Of a stretch of 47,844 nt of DNA, positions 2,521 through 47,519 are shown one piece after another. The number at the start of each line of letters is the position of its first letter. Within the stretch, counting starts at the first letter, position 1. The stretch spans positions 1 through 47,844 of the forward strand of contig CAYIEF010000005.1 of the NCBI GenBank assembly GCA_964362365.1, in the 5' to 3' direction. A model generated the notes under the pieces. It was not told where the DNA came from. It was given only the letters and a program-made list of their open reading frames with translations, and did not search any database. Source of the DNA: an uncultured Methanosarcinales archaeon. GTDB taxonomy: Archaea; Nanobdellota; Nanobdellia; Woesearchaeales; GW2011-AR9. Both the position numbers and the translations under genes were made by a program.

Positions 2521-2937
2521 ATCTTCTGGCCTATATACTTCAATATGTTTGCTTGCAAAATCCATTAAGTCTTTATCTCTGGTGATCAATGGAATGTTTA
2601 ATCTTTTTGCAATTGCAACATGTAGATAATCATAAAAACTAATTTTACATTGTTCTTGATGTTCAAACTGTCGTGCTAAGTCATAATCCTCCGGAACAGT
2701 CTTAATAAGTTTTATTGATTCATTGTCGTTGAAAAATTTCATTACTAACTTCAATTTTTCTTCAAGCTTGAATGAAAGTTCTTTTATCACTATTGTAGAG
2801 ACAATAATTATATTTTCATCTTCGATGAAATCTTTCGCTAATTTCCAATAAGGGTCTCCTTTAGTTGAATCTCCTTCTTTCTTGAAGAGATTGATCCAAA
2901 TACAGGAGTCGACGTAGTAGGTTTTTGGTGCGTTCAC
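2509..2937 (-). CDS. PIN-domain (VapC-like) ribonuclease
   Basis: PIN motifs YVDSCIW, E (IKEL), SFYDYLHVAIA and LITRDKD. The GTG start overlaps the upstream TGA stop. Confidence 0.9.
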   Translation of the reverse strand: MNAPKTYYVDSCIWINLFKKEGDSTKGDPYWKLAKDFIEDENIIIVSTIVIKELSFKLEEKLKLVMKFFNDNESIKLIKTVPEDYDLARQFEHQEQCKISFYDYLHVAIAKRLNIPLITRDKDLMDFASKHIEVYRPEDLTN

Positions 2938-3293
2938 GAGATTTCTCTTTGCTCAACTTTCTTTTCAAATTTAGTGACTTTAATCTTTTTACCAATGTCA
3001 TCATCGATGTCATAATGGATGTCTGCATCATAATAACAGTATTTGTATCCTAATTTCTCTACTAGATACCATAAAATCTGTTCATAAAATGCCGGCAGGC
3101 ATTCAACTCGATACCCTTTTCCGAGAGATTCTCCTTTATCTATCTCCTTACCTCTCAACCTTTCAGCGAACTTTTTTGCCTCCCTCAAATCTTTTTCAAA
3201 TTGTTGAGCTTCCACAGCTTTGCCGATAAGAATCTCTCTGTGTTCGCCTTCATACCAATCATATTGTATCTTAAATATATTGAAATCAACCAT
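2934..3293 (-). CDS. Hypothetical protein, translationally coupled to the PIN gene
   Basis: Clean ORF. Likely start MVDFNIFK at 3293 after RBS gaggcg. GTGA stop/start overlap with the PIN gene. Confidence 0.7.
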   Translation of the reverse strand: MVDFNIFKIQYDWYEGEHREILIGKAVEAQQFEKDLREAKKFAERLRGKEIDKGESLGKGYRVECLPAFYEQILWYLVEKLGYKYCYYDADIHYDIDDDIGKKIKVTKFEKKVEQREIS

Positions 3294-3447
3294 GGTAGCG
3301 CCTCTTTTTAATGAACTTTTTGACTGCTCTATAAAAGTATTATTGGATTTCAAACTCTAGTTCTGTGAAGTATATGGTGTAATCTTTCGAGAAACCAATC
3401 GGAAGCTATATAAACCTCAAAAGAATTTCTAATAACGGTGATTTAGC

Positions 3448-8453: not shown

Positions 8454-8638
8454 GGCACAATTCAAAAAGTGAGTGATTTTGCTCGTTTTTGTTATTAGCT
8501 TTGGCGAGTAGTTAAGGAAGGTTAAGGAATATTCTCGTTTTAAGCTCCTATCTGCCGCATTTCTTGTAAGTTCAAAAATAGAACTAAGAAAAAAGTGAGT
8601 GATTTGAGAAATGCATCACTCACAAAATGGATAGTGCC
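8454..8638. mobile_element. 185-bp non-autonomous MITE, IS1595-family-like
   Basis: Left end GGCACAATTCAAAAAGTGAGTGAT matches the reverse-complemented right end GGCACTATCCATTTTGTGAGTGAT at 18/24 positions. Flanked by an exact 8-bp direct repeat TCTACACA (8446-8453 and 8639-8646). No internal transposase. Confidence 0.75.
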
Positions 8639-8684
8639 TCTACACAGATATTTTAATATAGTACAACAATTTGTAAATTACAAA

Positions 8685-13883: not shown

Positions 13884-13893
13884 CGATTAAGAA

Positions 13894-13967
13894 TGGGAGC
13901 GGTGGGATTTGAACCCACGATGCCTAGGTCTTCAGCCTAGTGCTTTCCCAGGTTAAGCTACGCTCCC
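13894..13967 (-). tRNA. tRNA-Phe(GAA), intronless
   Basis: Reverse complement GGGAGCG TA GCTT AACCTGGGA AAGC A CTAGG CTGAAGA CCTAG GCATC GTGGG TTCAAAT CCCAC CGCTCCC A folds as a full cloverleaf. No encoded CCA. Confidence 0.97.
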
Positions 13968-14080
13968 ATAAAATGCTTTATTTAAGGCTCATTTATAATA
14001 TTTTTGGTAAAGAACTTCTTCTCCATTACTCTTCCACTATAAAGTTAAATTTATATATTCCAAAATTTTCCTAGTTACAG

Positions 14081-17756: not shown

Positions 17757-18314
17757 TTAAGAAACCCCAAATATCTTTAACGCAGTGGAAACTCTTTTTG
17801 CTGCTGGGATACTTTCTTCATGCTGATCGAGCGCAGTGGTTTTACCAGCATACGCTTGCAGATCCCAGTTCGATAAGCCCATCAATCCAGCTGCCTGCCC
17901 GATAGAAAGTCCTTTCTCAAACAAGGCTGCGCTTTTCTTGATCTTTGCTGCATCCATCACATCCTGAAGATGCACTTTGACTTTAGCGTTGCATTTTTTA
18001 ACCAATTGGAACAGATTCTTGATGCTGCCATTGTATTTTCCTAACTGATTTTTCTCTAAGCTGCCTTTGGCATTCTGAAGCTCTTTGATGATGATTTGGT
18101 AATCTTTTTCAGGAATGGAATTCACAATCTTGTATAAAGAATAAATCAACACGGTAACGGAAATCAAGTCAAGATTCTTATGTACTGCTACATCCTCGAT
18201 GCCGTGGTCGCTTAACACGCGCAGCTGATCAACATCATTTTTATCCTTGCGTTGGAGGATGCTGATAGCTTGGCTTAAATCATAGAAGATCTCTTTCTTA
18301 ATCGCCTCTTCCAT
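17757..18314 (-). CDS. Helical protein with a C-terminal UPF0175-like HTH (putative antitoxin or regulator)
   Basis: LFEKGLSIGQAAGLMGLSNWDL HTH. Start moved to MEEAIKK (18314), about 25 nt below a TATA-like sequence. Confidence 0.7.
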   Translation of the reverse strand: MEEAIKKEIFYDLSQAISILQRKDKNDVDQLRVLSDHGIEDVAVHKNLDLISVTVLIYSLYKIVNSIPEKDYQIIIKELQNAKGSLEKNQLGKYNGSIKNLFQLVKKCNAKVKVHLQDVMDAAKIKKSAALFEKGLSIGQAAGLMGLSNWDLQAYAGKTTALDQHEESIPAAKRVSTALKIFGVS

Positions 18315-18413
18315 GACCGAAAAGAAAGAATAATCTTTTATTAATGTTTTGTATTTGATGTTTTGAGTATAGAAATCTTTATTAAAGAAAAACCACTTCA
18401 TATCTCCTAAAAG

Positions 18414-21400
18414 ATGGTTGATATTGATAGGAAGCTATTAAAAAATAAACCTTGGACCGGAAAACTTCTTTGGACGCACTATCGTTTTTTTCTTCTTTTG
18501 GTAGTTGTAGTTCTCCTTGGATTTGTGGCTCTATTGTCTTTAGACAAAGGCGCGCCTCTTGCCGGCGCGGTGGTTGCAGGGAGCTGTGTTTCGCCTCCTG
18601 TCGGGATTATTAGCTGGTGGCCGGGAGACGGGAATGCTAACGATATACAGGATGGCAATCGGGGGGTTTTAATAAATGGCGCAACCTTTGCAACCGGCAA
18701 AGTTGGCCAAGCTTTTAGTTTGGATGGGATCGATGATTTCGTTGAGGTAGCTGATAGCCAGAGTTTAAGCGGGCTGCAGGTTTTCACCATAGATCTGTGG
18801 GTGAAGCTTCAAAATGCAGCAAATTCGCAGTTACTTATAGGAAAGGGCGATGCAAGAATACCTGATAGGGAATGGGAATTGTACACCCATCCCGATCTTC
18901 CGGGCAAGCTTCGTTTCGACATATTTGCAAAAGATCCTACGACGAGACAACTGGTATTTGCAGGAACATATTCTTCTGAGAAATCGCTTCAAAGCAATCA
19001 ATTTCATCATGTAGTTGTCATTTACGATAGGGGAAATATGAAAATGTATATTGATGGGATGGAAGATCTTCCTCTTGATAATAGACTCTTTTCTCCTTTT
19101 TCACTTTCTTCTCCACCAGTAATCCCTGATTCAGTTGCGCCATTGCAGATGGGTTTTAGACACCTTTTCCCAGGCAGCCATTTGCAAGGACTGGTCGATG
19201 AAGTTACGCTCTACAACCGTGCTCTTTCAGCAGCCGAGGTGCAAGCAATATTCAATGCAGGAAGCGCCGGGAAATGCACAGCAGATAGAGACCTTGACGG
19301 GGACACCATTATAAACACTCAAGATAATTGTCCAACTGTACGAAACGCAGATCAACAAGATCTCGATAATGATCGCATCGGAGATGCATGCGATTCTTCC
19401 ACTACAATTAATAATACAGGTAATACGGTTCTGAGAGTATTATACCAGCCTTTTGGTGATAGTGGCGTAAAGTTTGGTGTTTTTCTGGCTTCCTCTTCAA
19501 CGGTAGTGTCCGATCCCAATTATGCAACATTTACCGAGTCAACCTTTTCGGTTCCGAAGGGATTGGCAAGCGTCCATTCTTCCCCTTCTGAAGATGGCGG
19601 ATTCGATTTAAAATCGGTGGTGGTAGCACTTACTCCTTCGGCTGTGCTTGCTGGTGCTGTCACTCCTATGGTAGTGGGATATCTCGAAGATAATGAAACC
19701 ATGAGGAGAAAGATCATGATTAAAAACCTAGGTACTGATGTCGTACCTGCGTTTACCTTCCCAACGCTGGATACGATCACCGGTATGCCCAGAGCGCAAC
19801 AAAATTCTATAGCAGCATTTCTTCCGCCTAGGGGAACTACTACAGTTACTCCGCCTGCATCTCCAGGCGCTTCTTCCACATTTGCTGTTCCGCCCATATC
19901 TGCGCCCGTGTCAGTCATCACCTCTCCGGCTACAACCTCGCAAGGCGTGCCTGCACCCGGTCCTTCTTCTGTCGTAGGCTTTATTCCACCGAATGGAGCT
20001 GCAACCGTCACACCACCTTCGGCACCAGGCGCTTCTTCCACATTTGCTGTTCCACCCATATCTGCGCCCGTGCCAGTTGCCACATCTCCTACTTCAAGTC
20101 CCGGGGGTCCAGGTCAACCACCGCAGGGAACGCCAACAACTACGCCCACGTCTGTAGCCGCAGTCCTTCCTCCAAGCAGTACTGTTAATGTTTTACCACC
20201 TTCGACACCAGGCGCTTCTACCACCTTTTCAGTTCCGCCAATATCCTCACCAGTGCCTCTTTTTACTTCGCCAGGACCGAGTACAACTCAACCAGGGCAG
20301 CCAGCTCCAACCACTCAGTCCGTGGCAGCAGTTCTTCCTCCTGATGGCACTGTTACTGTTACCGCTCCCCCAACTCCAGTTTCTCCAGCTACCTTTACAG
20401 TTCCTCCACCAGTATCTGGTCAGACTTCTCCTCCTCCCGTGCCTGCTTTCACTTTCCCAACTCCAGATTTACGTGCTACAACCGCATCTACTGTAGTTAG
20501 AATTACTTCCAGCAGTGTGTCAGTTACTGCAGATCCTCCCACAATATCAACAACAGTAACCAATTCCGGTCCGACGGAAGTTAGAACCGTTACCTACGTT
20601 AGAGAAGTTATACCGCTTGAGACTACATCCAGCTCTGTAGTTACTGTTTTACCGCCGCCAAATTCAACAGCAATGGCAAAAATAACACCTATTGTAAACC
20701 AACTCGTAACACAAGTTGTAAATCTCGGTACCTTAGTTTTAACCATGTTCACTTCGCCCGATAACAACTTACAACTAACTCCTGTTTCTGCTACCTTAAC
20801 TCTTGCTCCCAATGAAAGTCAGGCGGTTACGAGAGATTTAGATAATGATGGTGTGCTAAACGATCAGGATGCCTGTCCGCTAACCGCTGGCAGATTAGAA
20901 TATCAAGGATGTCCAGTCGCGGATAAGAATGTGGTGCAATTGCATATTATTGACCAAGCCAAAAGAGGAGATTGTAGCGGTGCAGGAAGTTGCAAGCGGC
21001 CATTGTCTGGAGCTACCGTGAAAGTCTTTGATAGGAATAAACTGAATGGCTTAGCTATTACCTTGCTTAATGGCAGCGTGGTAACACTTACTAAAAATCC
21101 AGACGGCCAATCATATGATGATATTTATGAAAGCAATGCAGCATTTGCTGCGCAAGCCGGCAAATGTATGACTAATGCGAGTGGAACGTGTCTGGCTGGT
21201 GAACAAGCAGTTGGCGATTATCTGGTTGTGGTAAAAAGTATCGATGCAGAAACAAGAACAATTGTCTATACTGGCTTACCCAAGTCGCCCAGTGATTTTG
21301 TAGATACAAATAGCGATGCTCTTGGCGACTTGGCAACAAAGGGATTCCAAGTCATTAAAGTTATCAGGAAAGACGGCGTGGTTGAATTTAAGGGGGGTAA

Positions 21401-21803
21401 AAAAACCGTAGTAACTGGAAGCATTTTGGAAATAGTCTATCCTGACAGCACCGTCTGGGAAGGAACAAAACAGATTTATCCCTTTATCTTCACCAGCGAC
21501 AGCAGTTGGACAACTAATGTTTGTCTCTCTGTGCCTTCTGGCTATAAGATTGTCTGGGTATATGACCAAAATGGAAATCTGCTTTCAACCAGTGAATGCC
21601 AGCAAACTTTTGTGGCGCAAGAAACAAAAGTTGTTGCCTTTGAAGTTCTGGAAGTTTCCAGTCCTCCGCCATTTATGAAAGCGAAATTGAAAGTTACGTC
21701 GCCAAAAGGTAAAATACATCATCTTGATGTGGATATTCCTGGCTTGCGAAAAGAAGATCTGAAAGCGATGGGAATGCCGTTGCCTAAAGTTGAGAAAAAT
21801 TGA
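18414..21803 (+). CDS. Large surface protein: LamG domain, thrombospondin type-3 Ca-binding repeats and Pro/Ser/Thr-rich repeats
   Basis: GKVGQAFSLDGIDDFVE...GLVDEVTLYNRALS (LamG). DLDGDTIINTQDNCP...DLDNDRIGDACD and DLDNDGVLNDQDACP (TSP3). N-terminal TM. Confidence 0.88.
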   Translation: MVDIDRKLLKNKPWTGKLLWTHYRFFLLLVVVVLLGFVALLSLDKGAPLAGAVVAGSCVSPPVGIISWWPGDGNANDIQDGNRGVLINGATFATGKVGQAFSLDGIDDFVEVADSQSLSGLQVFTIDLWVKLQNAANSQLLIGKGDARIPDREWELYTHPDLPGKLRFDIFAKDPTTRQLVFAGTYSSEKSLQSNQFHHVVVIYDRGNMKMYIDGMEDLPLDNRLFSPFSLSSPPVIPDSVAPLQMGFRHLFPGSHLQGLVDEVTLYNRALSAAEVQAIFNAGSAGKCTADRDLDGDTIINTQDNCPTVRNADQQDLDNDRIGDACDSSTTINNTGNTVLRVLYQPFGDSGVKFGVFLASSSTVVSDPNYATFTESTFSVPKGLASVHSSPSEDGGFDLKSVVVALTPSAVLAGAVTPMVVGYLEDNETMRRKIMIKNLGTDVVPAFTFPTLDTITGMPRAQQNSIAAFLPPRGTTTVTPPASPGASSTFAVPPISAPVSVITSPATTSQGVPAPGPSSVVGFIPPNGAATVTPPSAPGASSTFAVPPISAPVPVATSPTSSPGGPGQPPQGTPTTTPTSVAAVLPPSSTVNVLPPSTPGASTTFSVPPISSPVPLFTSPGPSTTQPGQPAPTTQSVAAVLPPDGTVTVTAPPTPVSPATFTVPPPVSGQTSPPPVPAFTFPTPDLRATTASTVVRITSSSVSVTADPPTISTTVTNSGPTEVRTVTYVREVIPLETTSSSVVTVLPPPNSTAMAKITPIVNQLVTQVVNLGTLVLTMFTSPDNNLQLTPVSATLTLAPNESQAVTRDLDNDGVLNDQDACPLTAGRLEYQGCPVADKNVVQLHIIDQAKRGDCSGAGSCKRPLSGATVKVFDRNKLNGLAITLLNGSVVTLTKNPDGQSYDDIYESNAAFAAQAGKCMTNASGTCLAGEQAVGDYLVVVKSIDAETRTIVYTGLPKSPSDFVDTNSDALGDLATKGFQVIKVIRKDGVVEFKGGKKTVVTGSILEIVYPDSTVWEGTKQIYPFIFTSDSSWTTNVCLSVPSGYKIVWVYDQNGNLLSTSECQQTFVAQETKVVAFEVLEVSSPPPFMKAKLKVTSPKGKIHHLDVDIPGLRKEDLKAMGMPLPKVEKN
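19863..20260 (+). repeat. In-frame internal repeats (PGASSTFAVPPISAPV, 3 copies)
   Basis: ccaggcgcttcttccacatttgctgttcc...atatctgcgcccgtg at ~19863 and ~20025, with a diverged third copy at ~20208. Confidence 0.8.
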
Positions 21804-23844: not shown

Positions 23845-24345
23845 ATGGCCCTTGCCGTCACCCACATCATTCTGACAATTGCCTTCCTAGACATTTTCCG
23901 TCATTACGTGTTCGGCTTGAAAAAATTTCCCCGGTATTTATTGGTGGTAGGAGGAATTGCCGGGCTAGCTCCAGACTTAGATATCCCTATCGGTTGGATA
24001 CTTACTTTACTAAATGGAAGTCCGGTAAATTTTCATGGTCTTTTTACGCACAGTATCTTCTTTGCATTGTTATTTGCAATTATCGGTGCAGTATTACACT
24101 ACCGCAAAAATCTGAAATGGGCAAAAATATTTTATGTGATAACAGTCGGGTGGACGCTCCACATCTCCCTCGATTGCTTCTACGGAATGGATTCAACTAA
24201 ATTATTCTTATGGCCGTATCAAATCCTGCCCAGTTTTTGCCCTAATTGGGATCTGCATCAGTACGGCCACAGCATCGATGCGATCATCTTAGTTCTTTGG
24301 CTGCTGCATGAAGAAATCAGCAATAAAATAAAGTGTTATTTTTAG
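23845..24345 (+). CDS. Membrane-bound metal-dependent hydrolase (YdjM/DUF457-like)
   Basis: N-terminal TH, then PDLD, HGLFTHS, HISLD and LFLWP motifs with TMs. Confidence 0.88.
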   Translation: MALAVTHIILTIAFLDIFRHYVFGLKKFPRYLLVVGGIAGLAPDLDIPIGWILTLLNGSPVNFHGLFTHSIFFALLFAIIGAVLHYRKNLKWAKIFYVITVGWTLHISLDCFYGMDSTKLFLWPYQILPSFCPNWDLHQYGHSIDAIILVLWLLHEEISNKIKCYF

Positions 24346-26785: not shown

Positions 26786-27316
26786 TCAAGGTCTCCAAAC
26801 TTCTCCGTTAAAGAGATGTTCGATTCCGCCAATTTCTCCTTCATACATCAAACATTCTACACCGCACCTTTTCAGTAAAGAAAGTGCATAATTAGTACTC
26901 TCTTGCCATCGTTCCGGTGTTTTCATAATTAATTCTTTATGACCAATCATTTTTTTTATTCCGGCATCAACAATTGCCGTAGCGCAAGGGGTGCAGGGAA
27001 CCCAGGGCATGTACATGACTGCTCCGGCTGTAGCTGAACCTCTTCTTGCAGCGTTAATTATAGCTGCTGGTTCGGCATGAATAATATGCTTGTATTTCCA
27101 ATCCCGATCTGTTTTTTGTTCTGGGGTTGGGGCTAATCCTAAAGGAAAATGGTTCGCTCCATAACTAAGGATAGTAGCCAAATCCGGCATTACGATAACT
27201 GCTGCAGTTTTGGTTACCGTATCTTCGCTATGTTCTTGCGCAAAATTGTAAGCTTCTCGTAATAAAAATTGATGTTCTTCTCCTGCGATTAATTCAATAT
27301 TCGGATTCCAAGTCAT
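26786..27316 (-). CDS. dCMP deaminase-like zinc-dependent deaminase
   Basis: HAEPAAI and PCTPC motifs. True start MTWNPN (27316) follows RBS ggtga. The longer ORF-track version runs through tRNA-Pro. Confidence 0.9.
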   Translation of the reverse strand: MTWNPNIELIAGEEHQFLLREAYNFAQEHSEDTVTKTAAVIVMPDLATILSYGANHFPLGLAPTPEQKTDRDWKYKHIIHAEPAAIINAARRGSATAGAVMYMPWVPCTPCATAIVDAGIKKMIGHKELIMKTPERWQESTNYALSLLKRCGVECLMYEGEIGGIEHLFNGEVWRP

Positions 27317-27389
27317 GTTATCACCAAGAGAGATGGTGGTAATTGTGTTTATATTGTTTGTTATTCTCAAGAATGGGAGAAATAAAGTA

Positions 27390-27500
27390 TGGGGCCGCGA
27401 AGATTTGAACTCCGGTCGCACCCATGTTGGCAAAAAGTCCCCAAGGGTGAATCCTTTCTTGCAAGCGTTATCTGCTTGTACCAAGCTAGACTACGACCCC
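27390..27500 (-). tRNA. tRNA-Pro(GGG) with two BHB introns (D-loop 20/21: 27456-27479; canonical 37/38: 27425-27438)
   Basis: Reverse complement GGGGTCG TA GTCT AGCTTGGT[ACAAGCAGATAACGCTTGCAAGAA]A GGAT T CACCC TTGGGG[ACTTTTTGCCAACA]T GGGTG CGAC CGGAG TTCAAAT CTTCG CGGCCCC A. Helices CTTG/CAAG and TTGG/CCAA each have 3-nt bulges. Confidence 0.93.
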
Positions 27501-33725: not shown

Positions 33726-34775
33726 ATGAAAAAAGTAGTGAGTGTAATGGTTAGCATAGTACTTTTACTGTTTCTCATCGGTTGTGTCAACTATAAAACT
33801 CAACCAAGTTCTCAACAAAATTCAGAAGATTCACGATTAATAGACGAGATTGCCAAAATTGAACAAGAATTGCAGTTAGAAAATAAGCCTGCAGCAACAG
33901 AAAAGGACTTCCCAGACGTAGAGAAGACAGAAGTCGAAGAAGAAGTAGTTCTTCCCGAACTAACAGAGGGATCTACCCTGGAAGAATCTACAAATACTGA
34001 ACCTACAAATACTGAAGATCTACAGGTCATTGAAGTTGATGAAAATGAGATGGTTAAACTCAATGTAAAAGTATCTGATCCAGACCAAGATTCGATTGAA
34101 TATACTTTTACACCTCCCTTAAACAAGGTAGGGCAGTGGAAAACCAATTATGGGGATGCAGGAGAATATCTGGTGTCTCTTACCGCAACTGACGGCAAAC
34201 TAACTACGGAAAAGCAACTTAAGATAGTGGTCAACAGAGTAAATGTGCCTCCAGTAGTTAGTGGTGTAGCTGATCTTCACGTTAAAGAAGGAGAAGTTGT
34301 AAGCTTCAATCCAGTGGTATCCGATCCTAATGGAGATGAAGTGACTGTTACTATCTCTGAACCTTTGCAGAGTGGTACTTTCAAGACAGATCACACCAGC
34401 GCAGGAGAATATCAGGTAAAAGTAGTCGCCAGCGATGGCGAATTACAGACCGAAAAGAGTGTAGTCTTGCTGGTTGATGATGTCAATGAGCTTCCAGTGC
34501 TGACTAATCTTCAGGATCTCGTAGTTAAAGAAGGAGAACTAGTCACAGTAAGACCTACAGTTTCCGATCTTGACCAAGATGAAGTGACCGTAACCATCAG
34601 CGAACCTGTTGGTGATAAAGGAGTATGGAAAACCAGTTATACCGACCATGGTGAATACTTTGTCACGGTTACGGCGAATGACGGCAAGGGCGTGGTCACT
34701 AAGAAAGTGAAGGTAGTTGTTGAAGATGTCAACATGCCCCCAGAAATAATTGAGGTAAAATTAGCCGTGAATTGA
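33726..34775 (+). CDS. Lipoprotein with three Ig/cadherin-like repeats
   Basis: Lipobox LIGC, acidic linker, and repeats of V-x-E-x-E...SDPD...W-x-T-x-Y-x-D-x-GEY...A-x-DG...VNxxP. Confidence 0.85.
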   Translation: MKKVVSVMVSIVLLLFLIGCVNYKTQPSSQQNSEDSRLIDEIAKIEQELQLENKPAATEKDFPDVEKTEVEEEVVLPELTEGSTLEESTNTEPTNTEDLQVIEVDENEMVKLNVKVSDPDQDSIEYTFTPPLNKVGQWKTNYGDAGEYLVSLTATDGKLTTEKQLKIVVNRVNVPPVVSGVADLHVKEGEVVSFNPVVSDPNGDEVTVTISEPLQSGTFKTDHTSAGEYQVKVVASDGELQTEKSVVLLVDDVNELPVLTNLQDLVVKEGELVTVRPTVSDLDQDEVTVTISEPVGDKGVWKTSYTDHGEYFVTVTANDGKGVVTKKVKVVVEDVNMPPEIIEVKLAVN

Positions 34776-34819
34776 TTTTTTGTTTTTTCAGCGATCTTTG
34801 AGGAAAAGATCAAAACAAA

Positions 34820-37135
34820 ATGGATCTTAAAAAATTAATGTCTTTGCTTGTACTTTTTTCTTTTCTATTAATCATTCCTAGCGCTATCGGTGCGCTTAAA
34901 ACATTTCATGTGCAAGAAAATGATCTGGTAACCATTTCTCCGGAAGTTTTAGACCCAGATAATGATCAAGTATCCTACTCTTACTCCCCTCCTTTGGATG
35001 AGCATGGCCGATGGCAGACTGGATATAACGACGCGGGGAGATATACTTTGAAAATCACTGCTTTTGATGGCGTACATGAAACAACCAAGGAAATCATGTT
35101 GGTTGTTGAAAATAAAAATCAACCGCCTTATCTAACCGAAAAGAAAATAACAGTAAAAGAATTGCAACACCTTGACTTAAAGCAATTTGCTGCTGATCCA
35201 GATCATGATCCTTTAGAATATGTTTTTACTGATCCTTTTGATAAAGCAGGGTTATGGGCACCTAACTATGATGACCAAGGAACTTTTGTCGCAAAGTTTA
35301 GTGTAAGGGATGGGGATTTTACTGTTCCCGTGCGTATGGAAGTAGAAGTTCTTAACACTAATCAGCCGCCAACTATAAAAAGCTCTTTTTCAGATAAAGA
35401 AGAAGTATCTGTAAAAGAGAATGAAGAACTTTCTTTTTATGTGGAAGCGGAAGATGGAGATGAAGATCAACTTTCCTATTCCTGGACTTTAAACGGACAG
35501 CCTTTATCGAAAGAAAAACAAGGAGAGCATTTCTTTGATTTTGATAATGCTGGAAGATATAAATTAGCTTTAACCGTAAATGATGGGAATCATCAAGTTG
35601 AACAAAAATGGGTTATTCAAGTAGAAAACGTAAATCGTAAACCAAAAGTAGAAGTATCCCCGCTTTCCGTAAAAGAAGGAGAAGTAGTTACCCTCCTGCT
35701 TCCAGAAAAGGATGCTGACGAAGAGGCATTAACCTACACCTTTGATGAAAAGTTTGATGCAGCAGGAAACTGGCAGACCACCTACGATGACGCTGGAACA
35801 CACTTTATCTCTTATCAAGTTTCTGATGGAAAGGAAGAAGTAAAAGGAAAAGTTGAAGTTACGGTGGTTAATGTTGATCGCGCTCCAGAATTGCGTATTC
35901 CTGAAAAAGTAGAAGTAAAAGAAGGAAAAAAATTGTCTTTTGTGGTTGAAGCAGTTGATCCAGATGGGGATGACGTAGAGATCTCTTTTGTCAATGCGCC
36001 GGAAGGAGCGTTGTTTGATTCAGAAACAAACTCATTTAGCTGGTCTCCATGGTATGATTATATCAAAAGAAGAGGGGGCATGTTCAGCAATATCCTTAAC
36101 GCGCTTCGGCTTGAACAAAAATTATTGCGAGAGAAAAAAGAAGTGTTAGAAGTAAAGGCGTGCAGTCAGGGACTTTGCTCCTCTGGAGTTATTCCCTTGG
36201 TAGTCTACAATTGCAACCAAGCTCCAGTTTTAGAGATACCATCTAATCTAACCGTAACTGAAGCAGAAGTATTGCAGCTACAGCCCAGCGCATACGATGC
36301 AGATGGTGATATAGTGCGATACTACTTTACTGAACCGGTACACAAAAGAAAAGGCGTATGGGAAACTGCCTATGAAGATGCCGGAGAATATACTATTTAT
36401 GTGACTGCGACTGACGGTGTTACCCCGCAGACTGTACCGGTTACAGTGAGAGTGTTGCAGAAGAACCGCCAACCAACTCTTGAGGTATCAAAGGACGAAT
36501 ATGTTTTACGAGAAGGAGAAGAGTTTGTTCTTCCTGTTGATGCATTTGATGTAGATAATGATTCATTATCTCTCTCCGTCGAAAACTTACCTGAAGGAGC
36601 TTCTTTCAAGAACAATACCTTGGTTTGGGCGCCAAATTACGATTTTACTTCCGCTAAAAAGCAGGATGATTCTGTTTTAAGCGAGGTTAGTTCTTTAGCG
36701 AAAGGCGGTGGTGATCATAAAAGAGAATATTGGATCAGTTTTATCGCTTCCGATAAAGAATTTGACGTAAATCATCCAGTTAAATTAGTGGTAAAGAACG
36801 TCAATCAAAAACCAGAGATAAAAAGCTTTACGCCAGCAGAGCATCTCACTTTATATCAAGGCCAGCCGCTTAATTTTTCAGTAGATGCATCTGATTCTGA
36901 CGGAGATGATCTTGCCTATGCTTGGACTTTTGAGCCAGGAGCAGAGGAAGTTATTGGCTCTAACACTGTTGAAAGAACGTTTGTAAAACCAGGTGAAAAG
37001 AAAGTGTCTGTCCTTGTCAGCGATGGAGAGTACGAAGTATCTCATCAATGGGCAGTAACAGTGGAGGAGCATCCCATGGCTGAAGCGATGGCCTTAGAAG
37101 AGCCTAAGTTTAGGGTGTATGTGATTGAAGATTAG
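34820..37135 (+). CDS. Secreted protein with tandem Ig/cadherin/PKD-like repeats
   Basis: Signal peptide and ~8 repeats containing DPDxD, WxTxYxDAGxY and NxxP motifs. Confidence 0.85.
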   Translation: MDLKKLMSLLVLFSFLLIIPSAIGALKTFHVQENDLVTISPEVLDPDNDQVSYSYSPPLDEHGRWQTGYNDAGRYTLKITAFDGVHETTKEIMLVVENKNQPPYLTEKKITVKELQHLDLKQFAADPDHDPLEYVFTDPFDKAGLWAPNYDDQGTFVAKFSVRDGDFTVPVRMEVEVLNTNQPPTIKSSFSDKEEVSVKENEELSFYVEAEDGDEDQLSYSWTLNGQPLSKEKQGEHFFDFDNAGRYKLALTVNDGNHQVEQKWVIQVENVNRKPKVEVSPLSVKEGEVVTLLLPEKDADEEALTYTFDEKFDAAGNWQTTYDDAGTHFISYQVSDGKEEVKGKVEVTVVNVDRAPELRIPEKVEVKEGKKLSFVVEAVDPDGDDVEISFVNAPEGALFDSETNSFSWSPWYDYIKRRGGMFSNILNALRLEQKLLREKKEVLEVKACSQGLCSSGVIPLVVYNCNQAPVLEIPSNLTVTEAEVLQLQPSAYDADGDIVRYYFTEPVHKRKGVWETAYEDAGEYTIYVTATDGVTPQTVPVTVRVLQKNRQPTLEVSKDEYVLREGEEFVLPVDAFDVDNDSLSLSVENLPEGASFKNNTLVWAPNYDFTSAKKQDDSVLSEVSSLAKGGGDHKREYWISFIASDKEFDVNHPVKLVVKNVNQKPEIKSFTPAEHLTLYQGQPLNFSVDASDSDGDDLAYAWTFEPGAEEVIGSNTVERTFVKPGEKKVSVLVSDGEYEVSHQWAVTVEEHPMAEAMALEEPKFRVYVIED

Positions 37136-38711
37136 CATCTTCACACTTCTTCTCACAAATATTTACTTTAATATAATATTCTGGTTCTAAAGGGATAGAA
37201 CTCCCCCGCAAAGGAATAAATTTGATGGTATCTCTTCCTTCAAATTCTTCAAGAACGACTTTATGCGGCGTATACCTTGCTAAAAAATAGAATAATCTGC
37301 TCATGTTGGGATGAATTCTAATGCAGCCATGGGATGCTCCTCCATATTCAACACTACTTGGCCAAGCAGTAAGATGGATCCCATACCCTTCATATCCATC
37401 TTGTATGCTGCTGAAGGGTTTTTTTTGCGGCTTATTATTATTGTATAATGGCGCTAGTATCATCCCAAAAGCGTTGTATGGCCCTGGAAGTTTTTCTTCC
37501 TCTTTGACTTCTTCTTGTTCTTCAACTTCTTTTTTGGGATTCCAGAAAGGCATTAAAAGGATATTCTTCATGTAGAACACTCCTTCTGGTGTCTTATATT
37601 CTCTTTTTCTGCCGGTTTTTTTGTTTTTAACATCACCACCGGCTACAGCTTTAGTTTGATAAATCTCTCTTCTCTTTTCATTTTCGACAACAAAAAGGCG
37701 CAGTTTTGATTTGGTGCGGTCTTTTGGCCACTTTTCTACCTCTACTTCCAACTTCATGGAATCTTGCTGATATAGTTCAGGGATTTCCAAGTAAACTGTA
37801 GCGGTATCCAGTGGTTTTGAGAGAAAATTTTGTACGCCTTGAAGGGTGTTTAATCCTAATTGTTCCAAGGTACTATCCACCAATTTCTCTAATTCCTTCT
37901 GTTCAATCACATACGGATATCGTCCATTACATTTAGCATGAAAAACTCGTTCCTCTAAAACTCTTCGCACCCCGCCGAAAGCATATTCTTCAAAATCTTT
38001 ATTCAATAACTGTCGGGTGAAGAAATTGATTTTTCCTTCGATTTTCTGGTTATAACGCAAGTATTGCTGATGAAAGCGCTGGTACTCCATGACTGCAGCA
38101 GCCGTTTGGTCATTGTAAATTCCATCGATTTCTACGTAGTAAAATCCTTCCCACCGCAATATCTTTTGGACATTTTGTATGATTTGCACGTATGCCGACA
38201 AGGTTTCCAGTTCTTTTTTGGCTTTTTTTATTTCCTTTTCTGGTAGTTTGTTGTCTTTAATTTGTTGTTTTAAGGAAGAAATTTTCTTCACTGTTTTTCC
38301 CGTCGTATAGGATATAAATTTATTTTCAATTTTTGGTTGTTTTTCATTCCCTCTTGATTTCATTGCTTTCATATAATGTTCAAATGGTTTTTGATGATGA
38401 GTAAAACTGGAGAAAATACCGAAGCGTTCTCGTTGGAGGGGATTTTGCAAAATGCCTTCAGTGTTAAAGTATTGTGGAGCATCTCTGGACAAAGACAATA
38501 ATTCTGGAATAAAACGATTAGAGAGGTCAATTGTGCAAGCTATTCCTCTTGGCTGTACTTTTTCTTCAATTTTCTCGGATGGTTTTTGCTCTTCAGTTTT
38601 AGGAATTTTAATCTCAATGCGAGGGATTGGCAGCTGTTCTAGCGTCTGAAGTTTTTCATCCTGGCAGCCAGTGATGAGAGCACTAAGAAAAAGCAGCTCT
38701 TTTTTATTCAT
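37110..38711 (-). CDS. L,D-transpeptidase (YkuD) family lipoprotein with a peptidoglycan-binding domain
   Basis: Lipobox ITGC. PG-binding-1-like VQKILRWEGFYYVEIDGIYNDQTAAAVMEYQR. YkuD motifs KTPEGVF, PGPYNAFG and YGIH-x13-SHGCIR. Confidence 0.88.
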   Translation of the reverse strand: MNKKELLFLSALITGCQDEKLQTLEQLPIPRIEIKIPKTEEQKPSEKIEEKVQPRGIACTIDLSNRFIPELLSLSRDAPQYFNTEGILQNPLQRERFGIFSSFTHHQKPFEHYMKAMKSRGNEKQPKIENKFISYTTGKTVKKISSLKQQIKDNKLPEKEIKKAKKELETLSAYVQIIQNVQKILRWEGFYYVEIDGIYNDQTAAAVMEYQRFHQQYLRYNQKIEGKINFFTRQLLNKDFEEYAFGGVRRVLEERVFHAKCNGRYPYVIEQKELEKLVDSTLEQLGLNTLQGVQNFLSKPLDTATVYLEIPELYQQDSMKLEVEVEKWPKDRTKSKLRLFVVENEKRREIYQTKAVAGGDVKNKKTGRKREYKTPEGVFYMKNILLMPFWNPKKEVEEQEEVKEEEKLPGPYNAFGMILAPLYNNNKPQKKPFSSIQDGYEGYGIHLTAWPSSVEYGGASHGCIRIHPNMSRLFYFLARYTPHKVVLEEFEGRDTIKFIPLRGSSIPLEPEYYIKVNICEKKCEDANLQSHTP

Positions 38712-38741
38712 ATTAGTATTAATTTTTCAAAGTTTATTAAG

Positions 38742-38798: not shown

Positions 38799-39119
38799 AT
38801 GAAACATTCCCTAGAAACATATCAATTTTTTTTCGGCGCTTTGGCAAATCCTAATAGATTGCAGATAATCAACGTATTACGGCAGGGGAAAAAGAATGTG
38901 GGAGAAATCTGCGAGGCTACAGGATTCGAGCAGACTATGGTTTCGCATAATCTTAAAGTATTAGGATATCATGGAATGGTTTTTATGGAGAAAGACGGCA
39001 AATTCAGATATTACGCTGTAAACAAAAAGACCATAAAACCTTTGTTGGAATTCATCGATGCGCACATGGAAGAATATTGCTGTAAATTGTTAGAGGAAAA
39101 AAATGAAGGAAAAAAATAG
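38799..39119 (+). CDS. ArsR/SmtB-family metalloregulator
   Basis: FGALANPNRLQII...VGEICEATGFEQTMVSHNLKVL pattern. C-terminal H...CC metal ligands. Confidence 0.93.
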   Translation: MKHSLETYQFFFGALANPNRLQIINVLRQGKKNVGEICEATGFEQTMVSHNLKVLGYHGMVFMEKDGKFRYYAVNKKTIKPLLEFIDAHMEEYCCKLLEEKNEGKK

Positions 39120-39720
39120 AACGTTATCGGAGAATAAAGTAGAGGAGAATATAGCATTCTTTGACCGCTGGGCTAGAACATATGATAAGCCATTATTCCA
39201 ATTCTGGATGCAAAAATTCTATCGCCCTGCCTTAAAAATAATTGACGGAGGCAAAGTTCTTGACGTCAGTTGCGGAACCGGAGAATTTTTACGCAAATTG
39301 GCTACAAAAAAGAAAACTGAACTGTATGGTACTGATATCTCTTCTCAGATGATTGCGAAAGCACAGAAGAAACTAGGTAACCATGTCCAGCTAAAAAAAG
39401 CTGACGTTCATAATTTGCCATTTCAGGATAACTATTTTGATTATGTAGTAAGCACCGAAGCTTTTCATCATTATTATGACCAACAGAGAGCTCTTCAAGA
39501 GATGAAAAGAGTTCTACGGAAAGGCGGTAAGGCCATTATTATTGATGTTAATTTCTTTTTGCGGCCAATCCATTGGCTGTTTGAAAAACTTGAACCAGGG
39601 TGTGTTAAAATTAATAGTCGGAAAGAAATGAAATCTCTTTTTCAGGGATCAGGATTACATAATATTATTCAACATAGAAGTTTTATTTTTTCCGTTCTGA
39701 CAATGGGGGTTAAATCATGA
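39103..39720 (+). CDS. Class I SAM-dependent methyltransferase (UbiE-like)
   Basis: [18 protein letters not shown] and [10 protein letters not shown] motifs. Confidence 0.92.
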
Positions 39721-41930
39721 TCCAAAAAACACCAAAATTGCAAACGTCGACTCTCAAGATTTCCGGCATGCACTGCGCCAGCTGTAGCACTATTTTAACT
39801 AGAGCCTTGCAGAAAGTGGATGGTGTAAAAGCTGCGGTAGTAAATTATTCCACGGAGAAAGGCACCATTACTTATAACCCTAAACAAACCAATGAGCAAA
39901 TGCTAGTTCAAGCAGTGCAGAAGAAAGGCTACGGTGCAGAAGTTCTGGGTGAGGAAAGTTATGCGCGTGAGGAAAAATTACGACAACAAGAAATTCAAAA
40001 ATTGAAAAGGAAAGTAATCATTAGTTCTGCGCTGTCTTTACCGGCTTTAATTATCAGTATGTTTATTATGGGTCTTTCTTACAAAGATTATTTTCTGTGG
40101 ATTTTAACTACCCCTGTTCAATTTTACATTGGATGGCCGTTCTATCAGGGCACTTGGGCGGCATTGAAAAACAAATCTGCCAACATGGATTCTTTGATAG
40201 CGATTGGAACTAGCGCAGCATACTTTTATTCCATGTATGTTATCCTATTTACTTCTGGAAACCACCTCTATTTTGAAATATCTGCTATTTTAATTACGTT
40301 AGTTTTATTGGGAAAATATCTGGAAGCAGTAGCCAAAGGAAAAACCAGTCAGGCTATCGCTAAATTAGTAAAGATGGGCGCCAAAACAGCTACAGTTATT
40401 CGTAAGGGAAAAGAAATGAAAATTCCCATTGAGCAAGTAGTGGCAGGGGATATAGTTATTGTTAAACCGGGAGAAAAGGTTCCTGTTGATGGGGTTGTTC
40501 TGGAAGGACACTCCTCTGTGGACGAAAGTTTGGTAACTGGAGAAAGTATTCCAGTAGAGAAGAAAAAAGGAGATGCAGTTATAGGGTCAACCATAAACAA
40601 GCAGGGAATGTTTCAGTTTAAAGCCACCAAGGTTGGCAGCGAAACTACCTTAGCGCGGATTGTTAAATTAATTGAAGATGCTCAGGGAAAAAAAGCGCCA
40701 ATTCAACGGTTTGCTGATACGGTTTCTGCGTACTTTGTGCCTATTGTAATTGGCATCGCTTTAACTACTTTTTTAGTTTGGTTTTTCCTTGCAGGAGCAG
40801 AGCTGGAATTTGCCCTGATTGCCGCGGTTGCGGTGTTAGTGATAGCCTGCCCCTGCGCTTTAGGATTAGCGACCCCAACGTCGATCATGGTAGGAACGGG
40901 AAAAGGAGCCACGCAGGGAATTCTAATTAAGGGCGGCGATGTGTTAGAAGCTGCGCACAAGCTGAAATTTGTGGTCTTTGATAAAACAGGCACTATAACA
41001 AAAGGAAAGCCGGAAGTAACTGAAGTAGTTCCAGGCAAAGGCGTGGCTGAAAGAAAAGTATTGGAAATTGCTGTTAGTTTAGAGAAAGGTTCCGAGCATC
41101 CCTTAGCCGAAGCAATTGTCCAGGAAGCTAAAAATAAAAAAATTACTCCGAAAAAAGCTGCTCATTTTCAAGCCTTAGTCGGAAGAGGGGTGAAAGGAAA
41201 ACTTGGTTCGCAAGAATATTATTTGGGGAACGTAAAACTGATGAAAGAAAAAAAAATACCGCTCGCTTCAGTCTTGACCATGCTTGAAAAGTTGGAAAAT
41301 GAAGGAAAAACGGTCATGATTCTTGCAGAAAGGAAAAGAGTTTTAGGATTAATAGCTGTTGCCGACGAAATTAAAGAGGATTCCCCGAATGCGGTTGCGG
41401 TACTAAAAACGATGGGCATCATTCCATACATGATCACTGGCGATAATAAGAGAACGGCGCAAGCAATTGCCAAAAAAGTGGGAATTGAGAAATTCTTCGC
41501 TGAAGTTCTCCCGGATGAAAAGGTTGCCTATGTGAAGGAGCTGCAAAAGAAAGGAAAAACAGCCATGGTCGGTGACGGCATCAACGATGCACCTGCCTTA
41601 GCGCAAGCTGACATAGGCATCGCTATGGGATCAGGAACTGATGTGGCCATGGAAACGGGCAATATTGTCCTGATGAAAAATAGCCTGCTGGACGTTCCAC
41701 GCGCCATTAAGTTAAGCAAGATGACCATGAATAAAATAAAGCAAAATTTCTTCTGGGCATTAATCTATAACATTTTAGGGATTCCTATTGCTGCCGGTGT
41801 ATTGTATCCGTTTACGGGATGGTTATTAAGCCCCATCATTGCTGGTGGAGCAATGGCCATGAGTTCAGTAAGCGTGGTCACCAATTCGTTATTGTTACGG
41901 AGAAAATCTTTAAAACTGAAGAAGATTTGA
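39717..41930 (+). CDS. copA: Cu(I)-exporting P1B-type ATPase
   Basis: N-terminal [43 protein letters not shown], and YN and MxxSS copper ligands. Confidence 0.97.
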
Positions 41931-41952
41931 GTGGATATCGGTGCGGTAAAAC

Positions 41953-43338
41953 ATGAAAAAACTTAACCTTAAAGTTCAGGGAATGACCTGTTCCAGCTGC
42001 GAAGTATTGATAGAACGAAACCTGAAGAAAGTTTCCGGCGTGGAGAATGTTAAAGTCAGCCGGGCGAAAGAGCAGGCAGAAGTGGAATGTTCCGATACTG
42101 TTAAATTGGAAGAATTGCAGGCAGCAGTACAGGAAAAAGGATATACGCTGTTTGCTTCAAATGATCCTATAGAAAATCCTCCTAAGAATTCTTTTATCAA
42201 TTCTTTCATCCTTAAAGATAAGGAAAGATATTCAGAAATAGGCGCAGCATTAGTAGTATTATTTGCAGCGTATTTCCTTTTAACTCAATTCGATCTCCTG
42301 CCAAAGAATTTCGGCGTCGCTGACAACATGAGTTATGGCTTTATTTTTGTGATCGGATTAGTAGCTGCCACTTCCACCTGCCTGGCAGTCGCTGGAGGAT
42401 TGTTGTTAGCAGTTTCCAGTAAATTTCACGAAAAAAATCCAGATCTAAACGGCTGGCAGAAATTCAAGCCGCACATCTATTTTAATGCGGGAAGAATTGC
42501 TTCTTACACTTTGCTGGGTGGAGCTATCGGCACGTTAGGTTCAGTATTGACTCTCTCTTCAAGCCTAATGGGAATAATTACTATTATCGCCAGCCTATTG
42601 ATGATGGTGATGGGATTACAATTGTTAGGCATATTCCCTTGGCTGAATAAAATCCAGATCAAGATGCCCAAGTTCATCGCGCATAAAGTGTATGATGCCA
42701 GCAATAACACCAGTAATCAAAAAGCAAGTAAAACTTCCTCCTTTCTCTTCGGCGCAGCAACTTTCTTCCTGCCCTGCGGCTTTACTCAAGCATTGCAGCT
42801 GTACGTGTTAGGAAAGGGAAGCTTTGTAGTCGGCGCATTAACTATGCTGGCCTTCTCTCTGGGTACATTGCCTTCGTTAGTTTCTGTCGGTGCATTTTCC
42901 AGCTTTGCCAAAGGAAATGTCAAGAAATATTTTATGACTTTTTCTGCGGTGTTGGTGATTGTTTTGGGAATTTTTAATCTATCTTCTGGCTTTAACCTTA
43001 CCGGAGCAGCTATTGTTTTGCCAGAGAGCGGAGATGATAAAGATAATCTTTTGAACCTAGTAGGAGATAAACAAGTCATTGACCTAATAGTTGATGGTCT
43101 GGATTATTATCCGGATAAATTTACCCTCAAGAAAGGAGTTCCAGTAGAATGGAATATTGACGGAAAAAATGCCCAAGGATGTGCCGGTATCATCAGTGTT
43201 CCAAAATTAGGGATTATTGAAAAACTTCCGCGTGACAGTATTAAAACCATTACTTTCACTCCAGAACAAACTGGTAAAATCACTTTTACTTGCGGAATGG
43301 GCATGGCTGGCCCTGGAACATTTGAGGTAGTGGCATGA
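41953..43338 (+). CDS. HMA + DsbD/TauE-like membrane domain + cupredoxin-like domain protein
   Basis: GMTCSSC; TCLAVAGG...GRIASY...FLPCGFTQ; C-terminal KKGVPVEW...GCA...FTCGMGM. Confidence 0.9.
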   Translation: MKKLNLKVQGMTCSSCEVLIERNLKKVSGVENVKVSRAKEQAEVECSDTVKLEELQAAVQEKGYTLFASNDPIENPPKNSFINSFILKDKERYSEIGAALVVLFAAYFLLTQFDLLPKNFGVADNMSYGFIFVIGLVAATSTCLAVAGGLLLAVSSKFHEKNPDLNGWQKFKPHIYFNAGRIASYTLLGGAIGTLGSVLTLSSSLMGIITIIASLLMMVMGLQLLGIFPWLNKIQIKMPKFIAHKVYDASNNTSNQKASKTSSFLFGAATFFLPCGFTQALQLYVLGKGSFVVGALTMLAFSLGTLPSLVSVGAFSSFAKGNVKKYFMTFSAVLVIVLGIFNLSSGFNLTGAAIVLPESGDDKDNLLNLVGDKQVIDLIVDGLDYYPDKFTLKKGVPVEWNIDGKNAQGCAGIISVPKLGIIEKLPRDSIKTITFTPEQTGKITFTCGMGMAGPGTFEVVA

Positions 43339-46634: not shown

Positions 46635-47043
46635 ATGCAAGTTATTGTTGATACTAATATCATTATAGCTATGCTGATTAGTCCCGGGAAGCCGATTGAT
46701 CTTTTCTTTGACAACAAGTTACATCTTTTCGCTCCGCAACTGCTTTTTGAGGAGTTGGAAAACAATAAGACCGGAAATTATCAAAAAATCAAGGCTCTCA
46801 GAGGAAGAATTTGAGTGGTTATTCACTATCCTTAAACATAATATTGCCATCATTCCTGAAGAAAATTTCTTACAATTTAGAGAACAAGCCGATAAGATTT
46901 GTCCAGACCCAAAAGATATTGTCTATTTTGCATTAGCGCTTTATCTGAGATGTCCAATTTGGTCCAATGAAAAGAGATTGAAGAAACAAGATGAATTAAG
47001 AGTTTATGCAACGCATGAGTTGATAAGAACATTTTCTATTTAA
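46635..47043 (+). pseudogene. PIN-domain toxin split by a +1 frameshift near 46765-46775
   Basis: ATG 46635 gives MQVIVDTNIIIAMLIS...FAPQLLFEELENNK (PIN N-terminus) and stops at 46814. The C-terminal PIN motifs PDPKDIVYFALA and IWSNEKRLK are in the +1 frame. Confidence 0.82.
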
Positions 47044-47519
47044 TCTTTAAACTTAAACGACAACTCATTATACTCAACCGCATCATACACACAGATGCCT
47101 TCCTCCCTATACAGCACAAATTCGCTTATTCCTGCATCGAGTGTAAATTTACTGCAAATAGTGCAATAAGGATCGCCTGATCTCTTCTTCTGTCCTTGCT
47201 CATCCAGCCGGATAAAATATAATCTGGAGCCAGCAATTTTCTCAGGATGTTTTTGCAGTGCATCTACGATAGCGCGCTGTTCTGCGTGCAGGCAGCAGGT
47301 CTTGTCGGATTTAAAATCTGCCGGTAGAGAATCTTTCAGGCAATATTCTAATTTTGCGTCCAAGGGTGGGGAATTATATCCTCTTCCAATGATTTGATTA
47401 TCTTTCACGATAACCGAACCGCACTTGGAACGAAAACAACAAGCGTAGGCGGCAGCAGTCGCTGCATCTTCGATATACTCCATCGCTTTTATTGCTTCTT
47501 CACCGAAAAGAATTCTCAT
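47040..47519 (-). CDS. Second dCMP/cytidine deaminase-like protein
   Basis: CGSVIVKD...GYN, HAEQRAI and PYCTIC motifs. Confidence 0.88.
   Translation of the reverse strand: MRILFGEEAIKAMEYIEDAATAAAYACCFRSKCGSVIVKDNQIIGRGYNSPPLDAKLEYCLKDSLPADFKSDKTCCLHAEQRAIVDALQKHPEKIAGSRLYFIRLDEQGQKKRSGDPYCTICSKFTLDAGISEFVLYREEGICVYDAVEYNELSFKFKD

Follow-up and report, generated by a model that had tools for sequence, protein, structure and literature searches.

Why would an archaeon in which no genes for building a peptidoglycan wall were found carry a gene for a putative peptidoglycan transpeptidase? The question is raised by contig CAYIEF010000005.1 (C5) of assembly GCA_964362365.1, which was deposited as an uncultured Methanosarcinales archaeon and is placed by GTDB in the Woesearchaeales of the phylum Nanobdellota. 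The window is this whole contig with its 47,844 nucleotides; the genome it belongs to comprises 1.26 Mb in 101 contigs and is 94.97% complete and 0.45% contaminated. A first-pass annotation, made from the letters of the sequence, had described one gene as a peptidoglycan-binding L,D-transpeptidase lipoprotein, had proposed that its product may target the wall of a bacterial host or prey, and had suggested profile searches and a structure prediction as checks. By its sequence this product, P0001, belongs to the L,D-transpeptidase (YkuD) family and is predicted to work outside the cytoplasm. On balance we consider it probable that P0001 is a lipid-anchored enzyme acting in trans on bacterial peptidoglycan. 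The proposed action on the wall of a host or prey is our inference from the domain content and from the finding of no substrate of the cell's own making.

In the Pfam search YkuD (PF03734) reached 53.2 bits against a gathering cut-off of 23.4 and was matched from position 12 to 144 of the 146 profile positions; the same gene scored 55.9 bits in the genome-wide profile search. PG_binding_1 (PF01471) reached 31.2 bits against a cut-off of 23, and three relatives (P0036, P0039 and P0044) match this profile over its full length. Both families named by the annotation were thus recovered above their cut-offs. The segment it had singled out as PG-binding-1-like, IDGIYNDQTAAAVMEYQ, falls within the PG_binding_1 match, the lipobox it had reported is present as I-T-G-C at residues 13-16, directly after MNKKELLFLSAL, and the catalytic motif H-x13-SHGC is intact. 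NCBIfam gave nothing meaningful for P0001, nor for ten unnamed neighbour proteins. The positions of all parts of the gene are collected in Table 1.

Table 1. Features of the transpeptidase gene and its upstream region, in window coordinates; residue numbers refer to P0001.
Feature	Window position	Strand	Basis
Whole gene P0001 (lipobox, PG_binding_1 and YkuD; 533 aa)	37110..38711, stop codon included	-	Open reading frame (ORF), translation, Pfam, orthologs
Signal peptide with lipobox, residues 1-16 (MNKKELLFLSALITGC); lipidation predicted at Cys16	38664..38711	-	Sequence, alignment, Lgt and LspA in the genome
E/K/P-rich tether, residues 17-53, predicted disordered	38553..38663	-	AlphaFold2 predicted local distance difference test (pLDDT) <50 at residues 1-53; alignment variable and gappy
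N-terminal module, mostly helical, residues 54-170, no Pfam family	38202..38552	-	Pfam, alignment, AlphaFold2
PG_binding_1 domain, residues 178-236 (Pfam match 178-215)	38004..38180	-	Pfam, alignment, matches to the SleB N-domain
YkuD catalytic domain, residues 338-483, with acidic insertion at ~390-440	37263..37700	-	Pfam, AlphaFold2
Active-site motif H446-x13-S460-H461-G462-C463-I-R465	37317..37376	-	Invariant in alignments; aligned to B. subtilis YkuD
C-terminal beta module, residues 487-523, near-invariant C519-x3-C523 at its end	37143..37253	-	Alignment, AlphaFold2
TATA-like box TTAATAAA, -29..-22 relative to the ATG, in the 87-bp spacer between this gene and the divergent ArsR gene	38733..38740	-	Sequence

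Conservation was assessed in a family alignment of 27 members, which are 43-74% identical to P0001, and in a wider set of 14 sequences (A2). In the family alignment 71 columns are invariant. YkuD enzymes share a catalytic His followed by Ser/Thr-x-Gly-Cys-x-Arg with a nucleophilic Cys, and the catalytic stretch of P0001 aligns with IHGT...SKGCIRM of B. subtilis YkuD. We observed no change of H446, S460, H461, C463 or R465 in any family member (27/27) or in any sequence of A2 (14/14). The core of the PG_binding_1 domain is equally constant: Q182, L185, W187, E188, Y191, G197, Y199, T203, A206, Q211 and G226 are invariant (27/27). The last helix of this domain (EGKINFFTRQLL) comes after a loop that is longer in many orthologs. 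Further invariant positions are C59 and C261 (27/27), the former in the N-terminal module together with the motifs FIP, RERFG and HY; at least 90% of the members retain C519 and C523. The pairs C59/C261 and C519/C523 have the look of disulfides. The same catalytic residues recur in relatives at 23-58% identity, and such constancy over this distance fits purifying selection on catalysis.

The structure of P0001 was predicted with AlphaFold2 (pLDDT 79.3, predicted template-modelling score (pTM) 0.77). From the N-terminus the model shows a disordered stretch (residues 1-53), a helical module, a three-helix PG_binding_1 domain, a helical linker, a beta-rich catalytic domain, whose acidic insertion is poorly modelled, and a beta module at the C-terminus. 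A Foldseek comparison with the PDB placed L,D-transpeptidases at all of the ranks 1-8, namely V. cholerae LdtA (E 3.6e-4, probability 0.96) and YcbB of three enterobacteria. Like the members of the YcbB/LdtD class (E. coli LdtD, V. cholerae LdtA; PDB 6NTW, 7AJO), P0001 combines a helical N-module, PG_binding_1 and a YkuD domain with an inserted loop, and it has the catalytic motif H...SHGC.R in common with them. It differs from this class in its predicted lipobox anchor and in a host that has no wall of its own. Furthermore the Scaffold domain (PF20142), which scores 65.1 bits in E. coli LdtD, was not detected in P0001 at E<=1. When the family alignment was compared with E. coli LdtD by hhalign, 37 columns of PG_binding_1 aligned with a probability of 27%, a figure obtained with a single-sequence template and thus at low sensitivity. 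The Foldseek alignments span 450-476 columns, yet the global template-modelling (TM) score of the multidomain model to solved L,D-transpeptidases is 0.17. Because of the missing Scaffold domain, the profile alignment confined to PG_binding_1 and this TM score, we describe P0001 as nearest to the YcbB/LdtD class and do not assign it to that class.

Closer full-length look-alikes were found in the ESM Atlas, where the nearest clusters are named 'hypothetical protein', measure 570-760 aa and carry bacterial labels, with Myxococcota as the most frequent phylum (feature score 0.91, TM 0.67 over 448 aligned residues); these labels are those of the Atlas alone. The Myxococcota-rich clusters have the motifs EERVF, VVGG, TP.G, W.PP.W, PGP.NA.G and SHGC.R in common with P0001. 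They differ in their greater length, and P0039, P0044 and P0045 carry signals of the twin-arginine translocation (Tat) type in place of a lipobox. P0044, which like P0045 probably resembles the Atlas clusters, is 24% identical to P0001 from PG_binding_1 to the C-terminus (E 7e-27). When homologs were sought with P0044, only PG_binding_1 repeat proteins came up, the metagenome scans with P0044 and with P0051 gave no matches, and cluster look-ups returned taxon names only for members from Nanoarchaeota. An old transfer of the gene from bacteria to the archaeal lineage is plausible.

Such bacterial affinities also raise a rival explanation, namely that mis-assembly or mis-binning put the gene of a bacterium into an archaeal bin. 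YkuD, PG_binding_1 and the lipoprotein-processing enzymes Lgt and LspA are typically bacterial, the profiles of YkuD, Lgt and LspA found matches in bacteria only among the control genomes, and contig C5 carries no universal archaeal marker that could be named. Nevertheless the evidence from composition, gene order and independent assemblies is against this explanation. The tetranucleotide profile of the contig correlates with that of the genome at r = 0.991 (33rd of 38 contigs, counted from the lowest) and the genome as a whole shows very little contamination. The transpeptidase gene lies at the 94th percentile among 574 windows of equal size. This bears out the remark of the annotation that the gene resembles its neighbours in composition, and since the gene matches its genome we regard it not as a recent arrival but as old and maintained. 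Gene order around it is kept across the genus, all 11 named loci, which stem from many separate assemblies, lie in metagenome-assembled genomes (MAGs) with archaeal titles, and the contig of a distant homolog also carries a diphthamide-synthase-type gene. The locus was found in groundwater metagenomes of two studies, and in the independent study both gene ends are spanned by contigs that show 0-1 differences (X5 records 12 and 13; X6 records 19 and 20). A chimera was thus looked for in composition, synteny and the bridging contigs of a second study and did not appear: the locus is archaeal and the assembly is sound. We consider mis-assembly or mis-binning extremely unlikely.

The archaeal context that had been read from TATA promoters and from a tRNA gene with a bulge-helix-bulge (BHB) intron holds for the promoters and not for the tRNA. 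Over 1090 predicted genes of the genome, TATA-like hexamers occur at ~10% per position from -31 to -28 compared to a background of ~0.7%, as would be expected where archaeal promoters give rise to leaderless or short-leader mRNAs. The box of the transpeptidase gene sits at the position typical for the genome, which again speaks against mis-binning, but fails the strict hexamer pattern. The genome encodes a TATA-binding protein (TBP), the profile of which matched only the archaeal ones (four) among the control genomes; no small-subunit rRNA gene was found in the assembled genome. The window contains one tRNA gene, Phe-GAA at 13893-13968, in which no intron was called even by ARAGORN -i.

A separate irregularity concerns the 5' part of the gene. 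Contigs of X5 and X6 match the window up to position 38460 or from position 38602 onwards and then run into long G+C-rich sequence unlike that of the genome. The depth approximately doubles in that bin; all runs consist of contigs, so that genes cannot be ranked by depth. This may reflect a short stretch shared with another organism or an artefact of the assembly graph.

If the gene belongs to the archaeon, the next question is what substrate the enzyme could meet. The premise of the annotation that archaea make no bacterial peptidoglycan agrees with our searches: Mur ligases (Mur_ligase_M) were found in 0/16 genomes of the genus, and penicillin-binding protein (PBP) transpeptidase, SEDS and GT51 gave no match in the genome itself, which is 95% complete. 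Pseudomurein or another self-made wall was considered as the substrate and set aside on the same count of Mur-type ligases. PG_binding_1 occurs in this genome in the long gene only. A second YkuD protein of 258 aa is encoded at G000:C1:20216-20653 (L002:1210-1986, +); it begins with a lipobox-like N-terminus (FFSC), contains the motif IHGGG...TLGCIAL and is present in 3/16 genus genomes. In the PDB, DpaA (8IKR, E 7.7e-5) matches it best by sequence. The long gene and this short paralog are almost the only wall-directed genes of the genome. A lipobox protein (LVIGC) at G000:C45:4428-5237 (-) has a sub-threshold Peptidase_M23 match (27.6 bits against 28.7) and may also be wall-directed.

For the anchoring of P0001 we compared its N-terminus with the consensus [LVI][ASTVI][GAS]C, which is found after the signal peptide of lipoproteins (PMC12462473) and which I-T-G-C fits. 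The h-region of the signal peptide is short with 10 residues and falls one residue under the hydrophobicity threshold of our lipobox script. Outside the window the genome encodes a bacterial-type Lgt (PF01790, 222.3 bits, G000:C4:9631-10344 (+)), which occurs in 12/16 genus genomes, and a signal peptidase II, LspA (PF01252, Peptidase_A8, 115.4 bits, G000:C22:3415-3798 (-)). Neither of the two profiles matched any of the four archaeal control genomes. N-termini with a strict lipobox were detected in 29 of the 1231 ORFs of the genome compared to 0 in the control with internal segments. According to a 2025 paper no archaeal homologs of Lgt or Lsp had been identified (PMC12462473). Clear homologs of both in an archaeal genome are a side finding that may matter as much as the transpeptidase.

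From these parts we propose the following mechanism. P0001 would be exported, Cys16 would be lipidated and the signal peptide cleaved by the bacterial-type Lgt and LspA of the genome, and the mature protein would hang from the outer face of the archaeal membrane by a disordered tether of ~37 residues. PG_binding_1 would grip a peptidoglycan strand, and Cys463, aided by H446 and H461, would attack the bond from the L-centre to D-Ala in a tetrapeptide stem. An amine may then resolve the acyl-enzyme, which would either give a 3-3 cross-link or attach a protein lysine or a free D-amino acid; if water resolves it instead, the enzyme would act as an L,D-carboxypeptidase. Among these possible outcomes the LdtD-like layout leans towards cross-linking. 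The peptidoglycan would come from bacteria that the cell touches, be it a host, prey or neighbours, or from wall debris in the groundwater: as the cell has no wall-making genes, we infer that the substrate must be bacterial.

Several observations weigh against this mechanism. The family is very divergent: a sequence search of the PDB with P0001 alone gave 0 matches, and with the family profile we obtained weak matches to SleB, whose N-domain corresponds to the PG_binding_1 part, and to YkuD (E 0.1-0.7). The low global TM score given above belongs here as well, as does the loop at residues 459-462 beside the nucleophile, which has a pLDDT of <50. The anchor is not uniform either. Cys16 is kept in 25 of the 27 family members and missing in 2, and at -1 of the Cys 11 members have G or S, 13 have N and one has D, which makes this position non-canonical in 14/27. 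The usual companions in attacks on walls, genes for wall degradation as published for other DPANN archaea, did not appear: SLT/GH23 was found in 0/16 genus genomes, and LdcA, Amidase_2 and NlpC/P60 gave no match in this genome, the only one searched for them. PG_binding_1 also matches in Methanosarcina acetivorans, a control genome without murein, so this domain alone is no proof of a murein substrate. The gene is moreover unevenly retained: the YkuD profile finds the long gene in 12/16 genus genomes, the present one included, and nothing in 4/16. In one of these relatives (G015) the neighbourhood is intact and the gene is cut to a remnant of 49 aa from its C-terminus between the PKD gene and ArsR (L060:6341-6478, G015:C43), a clean deletion that indicates that the transpeptidase is dispensable in the genus. 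Across the phylum the long form was encountered in 6 of 401 sampled genomes, which belong to its own genus, to two further genera of the same family and, in a single case, to a different order. Finally, a membrane-tethered enzyme must reach its peptidoglycan, which lies under an outer membrane in Gram-negative partners.

Part of these observations could be accommodated if the substrate were something other than murein. P0001 might act on an archaeal surface, its own or that of an archaeal host, for example by joining or trimming surface proteins or another peptide-bearing polymer in the manner of a sortase-like cysteine transpeptidase, and PG_binding_1 would then recognise something besides bacterial peptidoglycan. 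The match in the murein-less Methanosarcina and the distance of the family from characterised L,D-transpeptidases fit such a role. So do the large PKD/cadherin-like surface proteins that the gene adjoins in every genus locus covering that stretch, the lack of any other clear wall-degrading gene among those searched for in the genome, and the hosts of known DPANN archaea, which are described as mostly archaea (PMC8204110). However, the family keeps the catalytic motif and the core of PG_binding_1 in exactly the form seen in bacterial enzymes, and the genus offers no Mur-type ligase that would supply a D-amino-acid or pseudomurein peptide (0/16 genomes). To our knowledge all characterised YkuD enzymes act on peptidoglycan stems. 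Pseudomurein, for its part, has a binding domain of its own, PMB (PF09373; PMC3466432). We regard a non-murein substrate as unlikely. It is also conceivable that P0001 does meet peptidoglycan and only binds it, as an adhesin or sensor in which catalysis is no longer relevant, or that it is the drifting relic of an old bacterial transfer. The patchy spread, with the deletion remnant and the few genomes that hold the long form, and the low confidence of the active-site loop in the model would agree with this. Against it stand the constancy of the nucleophilic Cys, both His, the Ser and the Arg within 71 invariant columns of the family alignment and in far more distant relatives, and the fully ameliorated composition, which indicates an old and maintained gene. 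A protein that only binds, or a relic, is in our view distinctly improbable.

Known enzymes offer two comparisons for an anchored transpeptidase that acts on bacterial peptidoglycan. In E. coli, LdtA/B/C fasten Braun's lipoprotein to the peptidoglycan, DpaA/YafK releases it again, and the architecture of the LdtA/B/C class is LysM + YkuD. All of these are YkuD enzymes; P0001 differs from LdtA/B/C in its LdtD-like architecture, whereas the second YkuD protein of the genome has DpaA as its best match in the PDB. Both the coupling of a lipoprotein to murein and its release by YkuD enzymes are described in PMC8263019. No homolog of Braun's lipoprotein was found in the genome, although no search was aimed at one. 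The closest functional analogy for action in trans is Bdellovibrio bacteriovorus, which uses its L,D-transpeptidases Bd0886 and Bd1176 on the wall of another cell; they are reported to stabilise the wall of the invaded prey (PMC10482364). The likeness meant here is one of function. In Bdellovibrio the producer is itself a bacterium that has peptidoglycan, and it acts from inside the prey periplasm. It is tempting to extend the first comparison to a covalent self-tethering of the archaeon, which the annotation had named as one possibility. The anchored transpeptidase would bond the cell to a bacterium, with the stem of the partner as the donor and a lysine of an archaeal lipobox surface protein as the acceptor, and the DpaA-like paralog would release the link. 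This is speculation, and we think it quite improbable. If true, it would amount to a link of the Braun-lipoprotein type across two cells and two domains of life, made with a bacterial-style Lgt/LspA pathway.

The theme of peptidoglycan-directed enzymes in DPANN archaea has already been published, and the protein itself has already been named by NCBI, where the members of its cluster are called 'murein L,D-transpeptidase [Nanoarchaeota archaeon]'. Large proteins with GH23 lytic transglycosylase from Pacearchaeota and Woesearchaeota have been read as signs of episymbiosis with or predation on bacteria (PMC8204110, PMC9723730, PMC11537232), and archaeal murein-directed enzymes more generally also as signs of antagonism towards bacteria. 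Peptidoglycan hydrolases were reported from 175 of 3,706 archaeal genomes, prominently of Nanoarchaeota, and such enzymes are reported to kill bacteria (PMC12352652, 2025). The setting of these enzymes (GH23, LdcA, hydrolases) is comparable to the one described here, as the producers have no wall, often belong to the Nanoarchaeota or other DPANN groups, and encode a secreted enzyme for bacterial murein. The reaction differs: the reported enzymes are hydrolases and lyases that cut the wall, whereas the family of P0001 is best known for making cross-links, and the archaeon may thus remodel or hold the wall of a partner and not destroy it.

Several aspects are new in comparison. These are the enzyme class, which comes from a wall-building and not a wall-cutting family; the divergent protein family, so far named only from MAGs of the Nanoarchaeota type and accompanied by bacterial look-alikes; the predicted lipoprotein anchoring of a wall-directed archaeal enzyme; and a genome in which the long gene and its short paralog make up almost the whole wall-directed repertoire. 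Our literature searches found no paper describing a DPANN L,D-transpeptidase, with supplementary tables, which may list YkuD- or Lgt-type genes, outside their coverage. Likewise the main text of PMC12352652 contains neither 'YkuD' nor 'transpeptidase' and the main text of PMC9723730 does not contain 'transpeptidase'. Most DPANN archaea are uncultured, and it is an open question whether some of them live on bacteria and not on archaea. A conserved enzyme with an intact motif, in a lineage in which no wall-synthesis genes were found, provides a molecular handle on this question.

With regard to the distribution of the gene, orthologs were identified in 11/15 other genomes of the same genus with 56-67% identity and E values of 1e-168 or better. 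In the named species-genome collection all relatives (11/11) come from MAGs, 8 of which are titled Nanoarchaeota or Nanoarchaeia and 3 'uncultured Methanosarcinales'. Shorter relatives of the catalytic domain occur in five more of the 401 sampled genomes of the phylum, and when every kind of YkuD domain is counted, 29 of the 201 genomes sampled from the order have one, a one-contig genome among these. In a representative library of 1.84 billion proteins approximately ten clusters match P0001 over the full length, followed by PG_binding_1 repeat proteins and generic YkuD proteins; among viral contigs no relative was found. A marine Nanoarchaeota MAG (L036, JAHJDB010000016.1) contains a relative of 391 aa with 46% identity between homologs of the window genes at 17757-18401 and 23845-24345. 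The relative thus lies at another site, which indicates that the gene moved within an otherwise shared gene order.

Within the genus the neighbourhood follows a common pattern. On one side two genes for PKD-repeat surface proteins converge on the transpeptidase gene, and in the window, where this PKD stretch lies at 33726-37135 (+), the gene of the 771-aa protein overlaps the 3' end of the transpeptidase gene by 26 bp. PKD/cadherin-like neighbours were observed in 9/11 genus loci, which are all those that cover this stretch (L015 and L016 end short of it). The divergent side (38799-43338, +) holds genes for ArsR, an S-adenosylmethionine (SAM) methyltransferase, a CopA-type P-type ATPase with HMA and a DsbD_2/HMA/cupredoxin protein. 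This metal-handling cluster is 75-92% identical in the relatives and thereby much better conserved than P0001. We considered whether the transpeptidase gene forms an operon with the ArsR/CopA copper cluster or with the genes of the PKD proteins and dropped the idea: in genomes beyond the genus it has unrelated neighbours (subtilase, tRNA synthetase, methionine synthase), and therefore we do not claim any operon partner.

The contig as a whole encodes many large surface proteins, secreted or with a lipobox, among them PKD/Big_9/cadherin-like arrays, Laminin_G_3, a beta-helix protein and TSP3 repeats; further surface-protein genes are located at 4701-7412, 8595-11609 and 18414-21803. Near the contig ends we noted PIN-domain genes, which are likely to form toxin-antitoxin pairs (2509-3353 (-) and 46696-47043 (+)), and two genes of the cytidine/dCMP deaminase family lie at 26786-27484 and 47040-47519.

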